This document shows, in pieces, positions 42,030-53,134 of a DNA stretch of 64,000 nt (positions are counted from its first letter, which is position 1; each line of letters begins with the position of its first letter). Source of the stretch: Escherichia phage AV124; the sequence record OR352954; one strand, given 5' to 3'. The notes beneath the pieces were generated by a model. That model saw only the letters and a program-made list of their open reading frames with translations. It was not told the origin of the DNA and searched no databases. The position numbers and the translations under genes were made by a program.

Positions 42030-43855
42030 CGCCAAATCTCCTGAAGCGGGAGGATACAATCACCACCCCTGCGTGAAAGGTTGCACATCCCATTAACACA
42101 CATAATATGAAGGGTCTCCCCGATATGTCGATAAAACACCATTTCATAAACACATTGCCGTAACGTGTCGATGCCATAAACATTACGGTGCGAAGCACTT
42201 TGCCAAAGGCAAAAACCTCCGGTGCTATAAATATATCGCCTTGGGCGATTAGCCAGAGGCTAACCCGTACACGGGTAAATATATCGCGTAAACAGGCCCC
42301 TGTTTTCCCCGTATAACCACCCCTTCCCCCCGTGGGGAAATCAAAACATACCCCCTGCCGAAAATATCACTTGCCGAAAAATATCATGGCTTGGTCCTTG
42401 GGTAAAAAATATTGTATTCGCACCATCTGCGGTGTTAGACGGACAGCTCCGGGCGTCAACTATCTTTACGGATCTTTACAAAATATCATGGGCAAGGTCG
42501 ATCCGGTTCCCGGTTCCTCGGGGCCTCTTCAGGCATGATAGTTACTTGCCGAAACTAATAATAATTGGGTGTGTCAGATAGCAAGCTTATGGTTTGCCAG
42601 CTTAGAGCACGATTTGCTATTGACTTGTTTATATTTATATGAATTACACCATTTAACATAAAACACGTTATACGCACTGACCAACAACGCATAGCAGACT
42701 AATAATGCCCCAATGTTACCAGTGTGACGCATAGGACAGCCGCTTCAGGTCATTACATGGTGTGACTGTTACTGTGGTGATAGTTTCATATGTGATTATT
42801 CATGTTTTAGGGTTGTTTTGTGAATGAGACGACGAATGAGAATCATTATTATTTCGATTTCGAATTCAATTTCGAAATGAGAATCATTCCGCAAATATAA
42901 ATATTTTGTAAATTTATAAATAAAAGCTTGACGAGGGAAGAGAATCGTGTTTAGCAATACATACTCTTTGAGCATCATTATCATTTGCGACTAATTCCCA
43001 TAAACCCTTGCTACGCAAGGGATTGATAGATATTTTCGATAATAAAAACACTTGACACTTCAGATAAAATCATGCTCAAAAACAAGCCTTTTCTCATAAG
43101 ATACGATCATCATTCTAATGGTTTGTCAACCATTAAACACGAATTAATTTGATTAAACTGCTAATTGTTTACAGGGTTTACTATCATCAGCGACACAATA
43201 ACACAATGCCCTTCGGGTTGTTTTCGCCACGGAAAACAATGTCCAGATTGACCAAAGGGGTTTTGTGAATCCCCTTTATCTGGACACAATAACACTAGGG
43301 CGATCAACGATAGTTGATCGGTGTTATCGTGGCGATGTGATAAAGTTTCATTGCTAATCATTACAGATGTAATGATAATATACTGTGATAATTTCGTCCT
43401 TGATCGTAGCGTCTACGAGCCACGATAACGCGAACGAGAATGCGATTTGTTCGCATTTGAGTTACCCTAGTGTTATTGTGTCGCTCGCTCCGCTCGCGCC
43501 ACTCCCCACGATTCGCGAACGAGAAATTTTATTGACAGAAAATGATTTCTATGCTCATAAAAAGCCAGTTCACACAATGAGTTAGATGAGGAAAGTTATC
43601 ATTATAGTGATTTATGCTCATATTCACTTCCAGTGCATAGAAATTCATGATTTATTCAGTTAATAACATGCGTTATTAATTAGGTGGGGTTGTGGGGTGA
43701 AAAGCCAGGACCGACACACAATTAAACGCAATATAAAGCGTTTTGAGCGTGGTTATCGGTTACCCTCATCATGGTATGTCTTGTGTTAGATCTCAATTAT
43801 GCACTTTTTTGCATAGCGGCGGGGCCGTGGTGTGGGTTGTTTATGGTGTGGATCT
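42030..43855. other. ~1.9-kb non-coding, palindrome- and repeat-rich region (candidate origin / regulatory region)
   Basis: No convincing ORF; numerous direct repeats, palindromes and nested inverted repeats. Confidence 0.5.
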
Positions 43856-50703: not shown

Positions 50704-50806
50704 TGCTTTTTACCTCGATTTATCGCGGCCCTTGCCGCCTGAGAAAACACTTTAGCAAGGGCGCTAACTGAAAGCAAGCGCCCAGGGTAAAATATTTTAT
50801 TTAGCT

Positions 50807-50964
50807 AGTGATAAGGTTTTTCCGTGGTTGATCCCAGGGATAACCCATTGCCCGGCGCCATCTTTAACAGGCTGACGTAAACGCGCCGCCGTGGTTACCT
50901 TGCTGTTAACATTACGGGCAAAAGCGCGGGCCTGGTCACGGGTAGTAAAAGAAATATTTTTCAT
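50807..50964 (-). CDS. small protein (first gene of leftward block)
   Basis: 52-aa ORF not in track; GAGG RBS; promoter-like TTGACG-N17-TAATAT upstream on minus strand. Confidence 0.3.
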
Positions 50965-51193
50965 GTTGTAGCCTCTTCAGTAGATGTAATTTTGTTTTGC
51001 CCTGGATTTTGGAGATCCTCACCTTTCCGGGCCAGATTGAATCCTCATCGCTTGCGCTTTACTCCACGCCCCACTATTTCAACCGGGGGCCTTGGATTCA
51101 CCCCGCCCCGGTGAGATGAATATTAAGTGATAGCGATCCCCGCGTCAATCCCCTGGATGAAAATAAATTAAAAATATTTTTGTTCGTGTGGGC

Positions 51194-51224
51194 TTGCGCC
51201 CCGGCCTGGTTAGTGTACTATATA
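51194..51224 (+). promoter_or_regulatory. promoter A (TTGCGC-N16-TACTAT) with GC hairpin in spacer
   Basis: First of three similar promoters; precedes small ORF 51253. Confidence 0.45.
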
Positions 51225-51252
51225 AGGACTCCCACAAATAAAGGTAAACGAA

Positions 51253-51438
51253 ATGGAAAACGCAAAAGTGATAACGAGTGAAACAATGGTTACCCTTTCC
51301 ACCTGGGAGACGGAAAGCGCAGCGCCCCAGGTTAGGATCGTGCCTTTACCCTTCGCGTTGAAAATGTATAATGCAGGATTTACCAGGGTGAGAATTGTTG
51401 CGGAAAATGGGGAAGTGATCGCGGACTCCTGGGAGTAA
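51253..51438 (+). CDS. small protein
   Basis: 61-aa ORF between promoters A and B. Confidence 0.4.
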   Translation: MENAKVITSETMVTLSTWETESAAPQVRIVPLPFALKMYNAGFTRVRIVAENGEVIADSWE

Positions 51439-51458
51439 AAAATATTTTATCACGGGGC

Positions 51459-51487
51459 TTGCAAACGGCCCCGACCTGGGTTATATT
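51459..51487 (+). promoter_or_regulatory. promoter B (TTGCAA-N17-TATATT)
   Basis: Same architecture as A; downstream ~120 nt lack an ORF. Confidence 0.45.
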
Positions 51488-51619
51488 TATCAGACAGGAG
51501 AAGAGACGCCACCCCCACGGCGGAAAGGCGGGGCTAACATACCAGGCGCGGCGATCTGGTTGGAAGGTGGATCGCCGGTAGCTCGCCTTAAGCCTGTTTG
51601 TAAAGAATTGTAAAGACGA

Positions 51620-51649
51620 TTGCAACCGGGGGTAGGATATACTATATTA
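51620..51649 (+). promoter_or_regulatory. promoter C (TTGCAA-N18-TATATT)
   Basis: Third member of the tandem set. Confidence 0.4.
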
Positions 51650-51818
51650 TACACATAGCGGGAACATTGAAACCGGAGTACAAAACACCGGGGGTGCCTA
51701 TCATTCAGCAAATGAGAATGATTACCATTCAAATAACTAAATAAGAATGCTTCTCATTCAACAAAAAATTTAAATATTGACTTCTGATTTTTCGTGTGAG
51801 ATACTGAGCGATACCCCT

Positions 51819-52030
51819 AAAAAATTTTTTCGCGTAAGAAAACAAATACGATCTGGAAATTGAGATCTCGATCGAGAACCGGGCCGAAAAATTTTTTCTA
51901 GAGAGAAAACAATTACGATCTCGATTTTGAAAAACCGATCGAGAACCCGGTTGATACAGAGAAAAATTTTTTGATAGTGAGAGCAAATACGTTTTTGAAA
52001 ACGAAAAGTCGATCGAGAACCCAGAGTTTG
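51819..52030. repeat. three tandem ~70-bp direct repeats (candidate iterons / regulatory array)
   Basis: Each unit has AAAAATTTTTT, AGAAAACAA(A/T)TACG and palindromic TCGATCGAGAACC core; unit starts ~51819, 51887, 51963. Confidence 0.6.
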
Positions 52031-52257
52031 CTACCTGAAAATTTGAGTTATCTTTTTCGCTTATTTGAGATAAATGTCCAATCTTGATGCCAAGATACCT
52101 ATAGCAATCATACACTTGTGCATCATTTTTCGACATAGCTCCCACAAAGGTTTGAGATAATCTACTCCCAAAACTCTTGATTTAAAAATTTGCAGGGAAG
52201 ATGAAATCCGTTTCAAAAACGATTTTGAAAACCATTTCGAATTTTAAAATATCTTTG

Positions 52258-52290
52258 GGATATTAAATATCATACAAATATCCCACAGTT
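52258..52290 (-). terminator. hairpin downstream of leftward gene 52298..53134
   Basis: gggatatt-N15-aatatccc inverted repeat in AT-rich context. Confidence 0.35.
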
Positions 52291-52297
52291 TTGAATC

Positions 52298-53134
52298 TTA
52301 TCTGGGATTGAAAATATCCTTCCATTTAATAATATCATAGGTTGTGCCTGTAGAAATTTCATACATTTTAATCTCATCTGGGGTCGGATTACAAATGTCA
52401 ATGAAAAATGTGCTCAATACAGAAATCAGGAACCGTTCTGTCTTTCCTGGGACTGTGTAAACAATACGCATATCACCGGGAATAGGAGAAATGGCCAAGG
52501 AGGTAGGGCCATTCATAAGTGTAACGGTATTATCAGCAATCTTGATACGACCATCGACACCATACACCAAATCATGGACAGAAGAATAATGTGCAAGCAC
52601 CTCTACTACCGGGTTACCGACAAGGTTCACGAGGTAATCAAGATACAGGTCTCGCCATCCACGATTCTGCATCATGTACCGTATATGGGAACCTCCATCA
52701 AACATCTCGCCCAGTTGCTCTGCGATCCAGGCAACACCATTTGCAATGTCTTCTCTGTTCCAAGTGTTGTCGATATCTAAAATATCCTTGCTGAACTTGT
52801 TCAAACGGCGCATAGCATTGAGTACATACTCACCTCTTTCAACGAAGGCACGTTCAGTGTCTTTTGCATAATCGAGAAGCCCTTCAACCTCTGATCCTGT
52901 GGCGTATTGCTTAAGGTCATCAAGCACACTTTCCACACTGGCCTTGGCCTGATTGAAAGTATACTCATCAGTCTCGTCAGTAGAGAATTCTACACCACCA
53001 AGGGCGTATGTAGCATCATCATAGAGCTTTTTGAGATCATGACGCATATCCGGGAAGTCATAACCAACCTTGTTATGAGGGATAAGTTCAAGAGTGTTTA
53101 AAATAGTAGTCATCGTATATCGTCCTGTAATCAA
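52298..53134 (-). CDS. hypothetical protein
   Basis: 278-aa ORF. Confidence 0.5.
   Translation of the reverse strand: MITGRYTMTTILNTLELIPHNKVGYDFPDMRHDLKKLYDDATYALGGVEFSTDETDEYTFNQAKASVESVLDDLKQYATGSEVEGLLDYAKDTERAFVERGEYVLNAMRRLNKFSKDILDIDNTWNREDIANGVAWIAEQLGEMFDGGSHIRYMMQNRGWRDLYLDYLVNLVGNPVVEVLAHYSSVHDLVYGVDGRIKIADNTVTLMNGPTSLAISPIPGDMRIVYTVPGKTERFLISVLSTFFIDICNPTPDEIKMYEISTGTTYDIIKWKDIFNPR

Follow-up and report, generated by a model that had tools for sequence, protein, structure and literature searches.

The window analysed here is a stretch of 64,000 nt from Escherichia phage AV124 (sequence record OR352954), in which a long run of leftward genes is broken by a 1.1-kb island at about positions 51150-52290. 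On the plus strand, this island contains four tandem predicted promoters (A to D), a gene for a 61-residue protein, and the sequences of two putative structured RNAs that lack an open reading frame (ORF), here called RNA1 (about 51494-51587) and RNA2 (51655-51704), after which come palindromes and an AT-rich repeat array. To the left it is bordered by a 55-residue protein gene (50797-50964, minus strand) with its neighbours, and to the right by a convergent gene for a protein of 278 residues (52298-53134, minus strand). An original prediction, made from the letters of this DNA alone, had drawn attention to promoters A, B, and C and to a possible small RNA after promoter B; promoter D, RNA2, a CpxR-type box at promoter C, the palindromes with their repeat array, and the conservation of the locus in more than 300 phage records are additions of the present analysis.

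To find distant relatives of the island, we used positions 50965-51760 as a BLASTN query, and this matched 336 phage records, these being from related phages of Klebsiella, Escherichia coli, and Salmonella. Identity is about 96% with KpS11, KB57, and other members of Mydovirus (Vequintavirinae; rV5-like myoviruses of Klebsiella). Outside Mydovirus, the match narrows to about 51486-51616 or 51486-51758, with 70-85% identity, flanks that cannot be aligned, and mostly no annotation. Such narrow matches come from Phapecoctavirus and Justusliebigvirus (Stephanstirmvirinae), and from Certrevirus, Seunavirus, and Avunavirus (Vequintavirinae). For Phapecoctavirus, Justusliebigvirus, and Certrevirus, identity over about 51486-51616 is 78-85%. 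In alignments of first 11 and then 26 distinct loci, we observed a fixed plus-strand order that consists of a variable small ORF, promoter B, RNA1, an invariant TTTGTAAAGAAnTGTAAAGA, promoter C, and RNA2, followed by 2-4 palindromes, promoter D (in several genera), and AT-rich direct repeats.

Promoters A (TTGCGC-16-TACTAT, 51194-51221), B (TTGCAA-17-TATATT, 51459-51487), and C (TTGCAA-17-TATATT, 51620-51648) lie where they had been predicted, the latter two being recovered by both consensus scan and alignment. By itself, the consensus scan performed no better than chance (14 promoter-like sites vs 8.9 +/- 3.2 expected in 4 kb). The A, B, and C sites go beyond chance because their hexamers hold position across genera while the spacers and flanks diverge, as seen in promoter alignments of 11, 26, and 6 loci. 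For B and C, 26 distinct loci, which come from two phage subfamilies, retain the hexamers and the 17-bp spacing with spacers that diverge, and promoter B reads TTGACA-17-TATACT or TTGACA-17-TATAAT in other genera. The CTTGCG and TACTAT/TATAGT of promoter A are kept in GAP31, Csp-D17, KP12, and KP13-16, and the fourth tandem promoter, D (TTGACT-17-GATACT with an upstream TG, 51777-51805), is kept in Mydovirus, Seunavirus, and Avunavirus loci. All four display what is expected of the sigma-70 type, i.e., near-TTGACA and near-TATAAT hexamers that stay fixed while their flanks diverge, and a spacing of 16-18 bp. Promoters A, B, and C are thus conserved sigma-70-type bacterial promoters, from which transcription is predicted. 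The consensus proposed earlier for the three (TTGCRM-N16-18-TAYWAT) fits A, but not B and C with their TATATT, and the description of them as near-identical holds for B and C relative to each other, whereas A is merely similar.

Upstream of promoter A, and between it and a divergent leftward promoter, there is an A/T tract (AAAAATATTTT, 51165-51181) in the position of an UP element, and, just as had been noted, AAAAATATTTT precedes both A (51170-51181) and B (51438-51448). A related early-promoter consensus with an AAAA UP element has been reported for Certrevirus (PMC7344957), and an early promoter class is described in the CB7 paper. Moreover, GC hairpins overlap the first two promoters, as predicted, with GGGC-TTGC-GCCC lying over the -35 of A and GGGGC-TTGCAAACG-GCCCC (51453-51473, plus strand) around the -35 of B, though promoter C has no conserved or consistently overlapping hairpin across lineages. 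In all lineages, promoter B has a stable hairpin lying across it (-7 to -21 kcal/mol), commonly with GNRA loops (GCAA, GTAA, GAAA) and then TATACTGTTT. Its tail, TATA(C/T)T(G)TTT, offers a short U tract, and a terminator scan flagged 51467-51482. We infer that this hairpin is a candidate intrinsic terminator, nested in promoter B, for the small-ORF mRNA that promoter A would produce, and such nesting would give RNA1 a clean 5' end. The 61-residue protein gene that promoter A precedes (51253-51438, plus strand) is a real one, annotated as kps11_190 in KpS11 and matching phrog_4653 (E = 1e-23), its function being unknown. Unrelated small ORFs fill this slot in other lineages, including an unrelated 87-residue ORF in phAPEC8-type phages.

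Downstream of promoter B, the RNA1 alignment (20 distinct sequences) has 48 of its 98 columns invariant, and gaps of 1, 2, 4, 5, 6, and 8 nt occur inside this conserved block. Since such gap lengths break any frame, RNA1 is non-coding on either strand, which agrees with the earlier view of this stretch; the contrary possibility, that the region is translated as part of a longer gene, was not borne out, as no frame is kept among the homologs. A protein gene was likewise rejected for the ORFs annotated here in GenBank for phAPEC8, PsgM04F, and cardinal, whose strands and frames disagree between records. The AGGAG without a start codon that had been pointed out after promoter B is indeed present in the sequence. 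RNA1 has a purine-rich, Shine-Dalgarno (SD)-like, single-stranded 5' leader (51494-51506, plus strand). In the window and in the homologs, this leader always has an SD-like purine run (CAGGAGAAGAG, CAGAAGAGGAA, CAGGAGAGGAG) with no start codon; by analogy with STAB-SD, the leader could stabilise the 5' end through recruitment of 30S subunits.

For the structure of RNA1, RNAalifold returned three elements, these being a CGCC/GGCG hairpin (51507-51522, loop ACCCCAC), a GGCGG/UCGCC helix (51527-51531 with 51572-51576), and, enclosed by this helix, an irregular hairpin of variable length (51534-51566), all on the plus strand; a conserved tail, AUCGCCGGUAGCUCG (51571-51585), is evident in the alignment. 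In the proposed structure, 96.4% of cells pair, as compared with 21-45% in slid controls. Four pairs of the third helix show compensatory changes (for instance, GC:11/AU:9 at columns 50/72), the covariation score was reached by none of 500 shuffles, and in SSBI34 an ACC..GGT of the RNA1 helix is flipped to GGT..ACC. It is because this one helix covaries that we consider RNA1 to be structured. Additionally, CCCC (51513-51516) in the loop of the first hairpin and GGGG (51530-51533) would together make a 4+4-bp H-type pseudoknot, for which 88.8% of cells pair (29-50% in slid controls) with one compensatory pair (CG:8/AU:6), and RNA1 probably forms it. The small structured RNA suspected after promoter B is therefore upheld through its covarying helix, but not through the GGCGATC/GATCGCC stem first put forward for it. 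That stem is present, and it is used in the minimum-energy fold of the window, yet only 56.6% of cells pair across the homologs, without compensatory changes or any gain over slid controls, and so we rejected it as a conserved stem; it is a peculiarity of this window. A covariance model of RNA1 (R1) scores 105.5 bits at 51490-51587 and finds this as the sole copy in 64 kb, RNA1 being single-copy per genome. In rV5, where the rest of the island is kept, RNA1 is absent, with a second RNA2-like unit in its place.

A second allele of RNA1 (type B, as opposed to the type A of the window) occupies the same slot in Ro1, cardinal, KP12, A7_1, pEa55, and P7_Pc, and is native to that slot in KP12, A7_1, and pEa55. 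What types A and B have in common is ACGCC...CGGCG, a linker rich in A, a hairpin, and the 3' tail. The type B hairpin is GAUG/CAUC in most phages and GCAU/AUGC in pEa55, and the CCCC:GGGG of type A becomes CCAA:UUGG in type B. In the Raoultella phage Ro1 (6296-7130 of locus L020, minus strand), R1 gives two matches with an HNH endonuclease gene between them. Here, the HNH gene is inserted exactly at the RNA1 3' end, right after ...GGAUCGC, and behind it there follow a new consensus promoter, with a GCGCCC-GGCAA-GGGCGC hairpin in its spacer, and a divergent RNA that ends in the tail AUCGCCGGCAGCUCG. Homing endonucleases usually target conserved functional sequence, and the Ro1 arrangement looks like intron-less homing with co-conversion of the RNA gene. 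In cardinal (L032) and P7_Pc (L036), the type B RNA is directly preceded by sequence that can be aligned to the 3' end of the HNH gene in Ro1, an indication that type B is accompanied by the endonuclease in these phages as well.

Outside phages, RNA1-like sequence was found in none of 5,426 E. coli genomes, and a search of 100,044 bacterial species representatives yielded one phage contig that had been mis-binned and, apart from it, just two matches within genes that are due to chance. As RNA1 is single-copy and is absent from rV5, an accessory RNA gene fits these observations better than does an obligate cis element. Among known RNA families, Rfam 15 has none that reaches its gathering score in the whole window or in 7 related loci, and scans by E-value (8 kb and 621 nt) returned only chance-level matches; ARAGORN found no tRNA or tmRNA in the window or in 13 loci. 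The nearest likeness is to Proteo-phage-1 (RF03044), a phage-borne, ORF-less RNA and candidate small RNA motif of Proteobacteria phages with no known function. Type B from Ro1 and P7_Pc aligns with it end to end, through both hairpins, the second of which has an AUAGCCG loop, and an CCGGCAGC 3' tail. However, this match, though reproducible, falls short of the gathering score of 42, type B scoring 21.6 and 20.6 bits, and the RNA1 of the window (type A) has no match to RF03044 even at E <= 10, and hence RNA1 may at most be a distant relative of Proteo-phage-1, not a member.

Several other resemblances were considered and rejected, each being unsupported by Rfam models or conserved pairing. By eye, these were domain IV of the 4.5S/signal recognition particle RNA (AGGUCGGAAGG), an anti-Shine-Dalgarno complement (AAGGUGGAUC), a tRNA 5' half (GGUAGCUCG), and a preQ1-I pseudoknot, to which we add a hepatitis delta virus-like ribozyme topology that leaves no room for P3. 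A type III antitoxin RNA or pseudo-ToxI was set aside too, as RNA1 is unrepeated, no toxin gene adjoins it, and the pseudo-ToxI locus of phiTE lies elsewhere. Searches of the literature turned up no paper that describes RNA1 or RNA2 and no transcriptome paper for these phages, and the rV5 paper marks only a 'non-coding' box (PMC3606486).

RNA2 begins about 1-3 nt past the predicted start site of promoter C and is a long imperfect hairpin (51655-51704, plus strand). RNAalifold found no consensus for it on a plain MAFFT alignment, because such an alignment is not structure-aware, and it was instead analysed by per-lineage folds and a curated covariance model (R2, 10 sequences). According to the folds, RNA2 is the same long hairpin in all lineages, with an AURGCGGG/CCCGYYAU outer stem, a lineage-variable inner stem (CCGG/CCGG, GCG/CGC, UCG/CGA, or CCCGG/CCGGG), and a conserved apical loop that is either GAGACAAACAC or AGUACAAAACA. 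In the window, where the loop is AGUACAAAACA, the outer stem (AUAGCGG/CCUAUCA) is weakened by two substitutions and the inner stem pairs CCGG at 51673-51676 with CCGG at 51688-51691. Across the alignment, 85.7% of outer-stem cells pair, with one compensatory pair (AU:7/GC:6/GU:3). Moreover, RNA1 has an invariant G-U pair and RNA2 has frequent ones (GU:13/20), and since these would be C-A mismatches on the opposite strand, a plus-strand RNA is favoured for both.

The R2 model scores 74.9 bits at 51655-51704 and also recovers rV5, KP13-16, phAPEC8, and pEa55. Although the copy was not among its input sequences, R2 further identifies RNA2b (45148-45095, minus strand) at 21.7 bits (E = 0.0014). 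This copy is part of a paralogous unit (45183-45095, minus strand) that starts with the promoter TTGCTT-17-TATTCT (45183-45155); after RNA2b there come a palindrome, a GTAAAGA box (45062-45047), another promoter, and a gene for a 109-residue protein. RNA2 is one of a multi-copy family. In rV5 (L012, 1795-2060), there are two tandem units of a promoter and an RNA2-like hairpin, and no RNA1; the motif CCCCGCCAGGT occurs three times around these units, also inside a promoter spacer. The annotated ORF198 of rV5 overlaps the RNA2-like units and is probably spurious.

That RNA2 begins a few nucleotides from a predicted start site and has a conserved loop brings to mind cis-acting modifiers of RNA polymerase, as in HK022 put-like antitermination, where RNA2-type hairpins would bind the polymerase that makes them for terminator read-through. 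The recurrence of RNA2 after separate promoters (51655 on the plus strand, 45148 on the minus strand, and the two tandem rV5 copies) and the position of RNA2b upstream of a same-strand gene block are in keeping with this. Still, a second promoter is always directly next and would escape the modification, RNA2 at 51655 is without downstream genes, and RNA1 is left unaddressed, and we hold this explanation to be highly improbable.

At about 51600-51616 on the plus strand, and 3 nt upstream of the promoter C -35, we noticed a GTAAAGA-ATT-GTAAAGA box (GTAAAGAATTGTAAAG). The consensus for CpxR~P is GTAAA(N)4-8GTAAA (PMC3158067), and GTAAAGAATTGTAAAG matches it exactly as GTAAA-N5-GTAAA (51600-51614). 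Across loci, the invariant positions of the box are G-T-A-A-A-G-A...G-T-A-A-A-G. Three exact copies of GTAAA-N5-GTAAA occur in the 64 kb, where 0.13 would be expected, all of them reading GTAAAGAnnnGTAAAG and preceding a -35 by 3-5 nt. For phAPEC8-type phages, box and -35 are 12-13 nt apart, an increase of one helical turn. Because its spacing behaves like that of an activator site or UP-like element, we take the box to be a control element of promoter C at the DNA level, and it may be a candidate CpxR input. CpxR~P-activated promoters (cpxP, ppiA; PMC3158067) likewise have a tandem GTAAA-N5-GTAAA just upstream of the -35, and helical phasing is kept here between lineages; unlike them, the box belongs to a lytic phage, has three copies in 64 kb, and is extended to GTAAAGA. 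A phage-encoded factor is an equally good candidate for binding there.

Past RNA2, two palindromes of 19-23 bp (AAATGAGAATGATTACCATTCAA at 51710-51732 and AAATAAGAATGCTTCTCATTCAA at 51739-51761) are spaced by 29 nt and are operator- or iteron-like in appearance. The same motif is present at 42835, 42876, 42967, and 45075, and 2-4 palindromes with the 29-nt spacing are found in CR3 and phAPEC8. When compared with the Fur box (GATAATGATAATCATTATC), the palindromes match at 14 of 19 positions, and those of rV5 at 16 of 19 when counted by eye. Such likeness is not specific, because matches of this kind are common in an AT-rich genome (at least 13 of 19 at 65 sites in the window vs about 20 in shuffles). 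The palindromes may be the operator of a phage protein.

Box and palindromes raise the question of whether the conserved blocks are DNA-level elements only, that is, protein sites or a minus-strand terminator, with any plus-strand RNA being incidental. Apart from the operator-like palindromes, this would account for the placement of the GTAAAGA box either 3-5 nt from the -35 or 9-10 bp (one helical turn) further in phAPEC8-type phages, and the terminator scan does call the complement of the RNA1 5' domain (51531-51509) terminator-like. On the other hand, the variable hairpin of RNA1 keeps its pairing through compensatory changes and a flip of strand arms, neither being expected of a protein site, the G-U pairs would be mismatched on the other strand, and a consensus promoter is kept exactly upstream of each block. 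Thus weighed, an explanation by DNA sites alone strikes us as the least credible of those considered, and a very slim prospect.

Beyond the palindromes, an AT-rich array of three direct repeats of 67-74 nt (51820-52024) has in each repeat an A5T6 tract, a variable internal hairpin, and GATCGAGAAC. The array motifs GATCGAGAAC, GATCGAGWAC, and AAAAATTTTTT are found nowhere else in the 64 kb. Equivalent arrays are in CR3 and rV5, and different AT-rich repeats take the same place in phAPEC8. Compared between the window (51820-52024), L003 (1846-2039), and rV5 (L012, 2152-2350), the repeats measure 63-78 nt and keep the ends A5T6...AATACG and TCGATCGAGAAC, and the sequence of the internal hairpin differs with each repeat copy (GATCT/AGATC, TCGATTTT/AAAACCGA, CGTTTT/AAAACG). 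As the hairpin is kept but its sequence is not, this suggests an RNA or single-stranded-DNA structure over a simple protein site. Elsewhere in the window, a repeat-rich region of about 1.5 kb (42200-43700) has no convincing ORF on either strand, and contains three copies of the palindrome (42835, 42876, and 42967), repeated cactagggtaac/ccctagtgttattgtgtc blocks, and an GTAAAGAtccGTAAAGA box with TTGACG at 42479-42453 (minus strand). This may represent another regulatory or origin-like region, possibly the one drawn as a 'non-coding' box in the rV5 paper.

Together, the regularly spaced palindromes, the AT-rich repeats, and the promoters transcribing into them give this half of the island the look of a phage origin, and the main rival to a stand-alone role for RNA1 follows from this. 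Here, promoters B, C, and D would send G-rich transcripts into the palindromes and repeats, the RNA would prime DNA synthesis there by way of an R-loop or by opening the duplex, and RNA1 and RNA2 would be folding elements of a primer or activator transcript. Promoter D is situated about 10 nt upstream of an A5T6 tract, and GC content drops to 0.30-0.36 over 51700-52300 (0.32-0.36 in the array) as compared with about 0.45 in the flanks. Each of the three repeats has GATCGAGAAC and AAAAATTTTTT, motifs that are unique to the array, and the succession of 2-4 palindromes at 29-nt spacing and AT-rich direct repeats is shared by the window, CR3, rV5, and phAPEC8, an architecture that rV5 keeps despite its missing RNA1. 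Moreover, the plus-strand GC skew of +0.16 to +0.18 over 51300-51700 means that the transcribed RNA would be G-rich.

Transcription-dependent origins are well known, among them T7 phi1.1A/1.1B with its AT-rich region, T4 oriF/oriG, and ColE1 RNA II. What the island has in common with these is tandem promoters and a G-rich transcript that leads into an AT-rich region with repeats, the likeness being one of sequence features alone; it differs in that its RNAs are short, discrete, conserved modules and that RNA1 is missing in rV5, which keeps the array. RNA1 is thus dispensable in rV5, RNA2b precedes ordinary genes with no repeat array nearby, and a primer RNA would not be expected to have 45 nt invariant across subfamilies or two alleles exchanged by homing. 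Nor is there any recognisable initiator domain in the neighbouring proteins, which were considered as regulators too, but have no Pfam domain and fall into PHROG families of unknown function; a similarity search with these proteins gave close homologs only, and an AlphaFold model of the 278-residue protein was set aside for its low confidence (predicted local distance difference test score of 47). For rV5 itself, skew analysis showed only changes linked with the orientation of transcription (PMC3606486). On balance, we find an origin served by RNA1 and RNA2 possible but doubtful. It may, though, be compatible with RNA1 acting in trans, the array then being the origin and RNA1 a passenger gene.

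With regard to the surroundings of the island, a leftward promoter (TTGACG-17-TAATAT, 51148-51120, minus strand) was detected by the consensus scan as the divergent partner of promoter A. The complement of its -35 (CCGTCAAT) is unchanged in the alignment of 6 phages, and in 6 aligned loci the two promoters are kept as a pair around the A/T tract. It is predicted to restart leftward transcription toward the 55-residue protein gene. At the other end, an inverted repeat, TGGGATATT...AATATCCCA (52253-52288), has T-runs on each side and is a candidate bidirectional terminator that probably ends both the plus-strand transcripts and the convergent gene for the 278-residue protein; it was missed by the terminator scan because its loop is 12 nt. 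About 600 nt of non-coding DNA together with this candidate terminator separate the plus-strand transcripts from the convergent gene.

All four promoters oppose the direction of the flanking genes, leftward transcription would start anew at a promoter of its own (51148-51120), and RNA1 and RNA2 would find their full complement in any RNA arising from leftward read-through. From this arrangement one may envisage an antisense or interference barrier, in which the plus-strand promoters stop or degrade read-through from the block of the 278-residue protein gene and so separate two leftward units. A barrier of this kind needs promoters only, however, and leaves the invariant transcribed sequence (48 columns in RNA1), the covarying helices, and the two alleles without explanation. 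In addition, the candidate terminator at 52253-52288 already divides the units, and RNA2b runs the same way as its neighbouring genes. The antisense or interference role raised with the original prediction therefore looks secondary, and as the purpose of the island we regard it as improbable.

Several further features were observed around the locus. The GC-rich 5' leader of the leftward 55-residue protein gene (50965-51119) has 26-nt inverted repeats at 51019-51044 and 51094-51119. In several relatives, the segment 50965-51119 is swapped for another insert, such that matches begin only at 51104 or 51143, and a short 'DNA ligase' gene is annotated nearby. In four records (OY979426, OY978784, OY978796, and OY757067), tail sheath, baseplate hub, and tRNAs are annotated under the match, which is implausible for an early non-coding locus, and the annotation coordinates of these records seem out of register with the sequence.

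With these features and alternatives in mind, the reading that we favour, with a confidence that stops somewhat short of even, is that the locus is a conserved transcription island for early, stand-alone structured RNAs, of which RNA1 would act in trans. Interference, put-like modification, and DNA sites alone are each less likely than this. In such a scheme, host RNA polymerase with sigma-70 would start at the four tandem plus-strand promoters in the early region of rV5-like and phAPEC8-like phages. Promoter A would give the mRNA of a small lineage-variable protein, ending at the GC hairpin inside promoter B, and promoter B would give RNA1 as a stand-alone RNA of about 95 nt or more, comprising the SD-like leader, the H-type pseudoknot, the variable hairpin, and the invariant 3' tail. 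Promoter C, maybe boosted by the host envelope-stress regulator CpxR, would give RNA2, about 50 nt long and folded into a hairpin whose loop is conserved. Through its invariant unpaired nucleotides, RNA1 would engage a conserved partner, either protein or RNA, and would serve as a regulator or decoy rather than as an antisense RNA or a by-product of transcription. A trans-acting RNA1 is favoured because its unpaired nucleotides are as invariant as its helices, because it is accessory, being absent in rV5 while the island stays, and because it acts like an exchangeable gene, targeted by a homing endonuclease.

There are also observations that weigh against this reading. As regards structure, the two RNA1 helices of invariant sequence leave no room for covariation, the single compensatory pair of the pseudoknot separates the two alleles and therefore maybe reflects a single evolutionary event, and the folding energy of the RNA1 region as a single sequence is not significant on either strand when compared with shuffles (z = -0.56). 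As regards the RNA as a separate molecule, RNA1 has no consistent intrinsic terminator across lineages and promoter C is directly downstream, and so RNA1 may be just the 5' part of a longer transcript that extends into RNA2 and the repeat array. Neither the RNA1 tail nor the RNA2 loop has any significantly complementary sequence in the window, and no target or partner was found. Moreover, the scan calls the complement of the RNA1 pseudoknot domain (51531-51507, minus strand) terminator-like, with a pyrimidine-rich UCUCUUCUCCUGU following it, and this complement might stop leftward read-through too. Lastly, the downstream palindromes and AT-rich iteron-like repeats suit a cis-acting origin, which could explain the promoters without a function in trans.

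Known phage systems offer only partial parallels to an RNA1 that acts in trans. In T7, the three tandem strong sigma-70 early promoters A1, A2, and A3 drive a 7-kb early mRNA. The island resembles these in that several strong host-type promoters follow one another over a few hundred bp, uninterrupted by ORFs, for use right after infection, but differs in that each promoter is followed by a conserved structured RNA of its own and that no protein gene is downstream of B, C, and D. The OOP RNA of lambda and the sar RNA of P22 act by antisense pairing to an overlapping mRNA and have clear terminators, and OOP adjoins the origin. Like them, RNA1 and RNA2 would be small and ORF-less, come from constitutive promoters, and run opposite to the flanking genes; unlike them, RNA1 overlaps no coding gene, is without a clear terminator, and is conserved far beyond what antisense pairing needs. 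From within the same phage group comes pseudo-ToxI of the Certrevirus phiTE, an RNA antitoxin mimic with 36-nt tandem repeats similar to ToxI (PMC3475682). This non-coding counter-defence RNA sets a precedent for accessory functional RNAs in an intergenic region, though RNA1 is single-copy and unrelated in sequence. While phage small RNAs made from host-type promoters are thus familiar, the RNA families, the putative pseudoknot architecture, the candidate promoter-nested terminator, and the CpxR-type box are new.

A bolder version, which we consider rather unlikely, would have RNA1 represent a new class of pseudoknot RNA, and specifically a decoy that neutralises a conserved host defence or RNA-processing factor, or else a small-molecule sensor that gates transcription into the origin-like array. 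As a decoy, RNA1 would appear within minutes of infection by way of its consensus host promoter, with the invariant pseudoknot and tail as its binding parts. The alleles, which a homing endonuclease would have spread, would then be the outcome of an arms race, and the CpxR-coupled promoter of RNA2 would be a phage circuit for reading the host response to entry.

Myoviruses that are rV5-like or phAPEC8-like have been isolated widely and find use as therapeutic candidates against Klebsiella, E. coli, Salmonella, and Cronobacter, but almost everything in their early regions is annotated as 'hypothetical'. The island is among the most conserved stretches of these regions, and in GenBank it is either blank or covered with inconsistent spurious ORFs, so that its recognition corrects the annotation of several hundred genomes. 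For the biology of these phages, it supplies two testable new RNA families, one of which has a likely pseudoknot and is targeted by a homing endonuclease, together with a concrete candidate origin region and a candidate input, through CpxR, by which a host regulator may reach phage early transcription.

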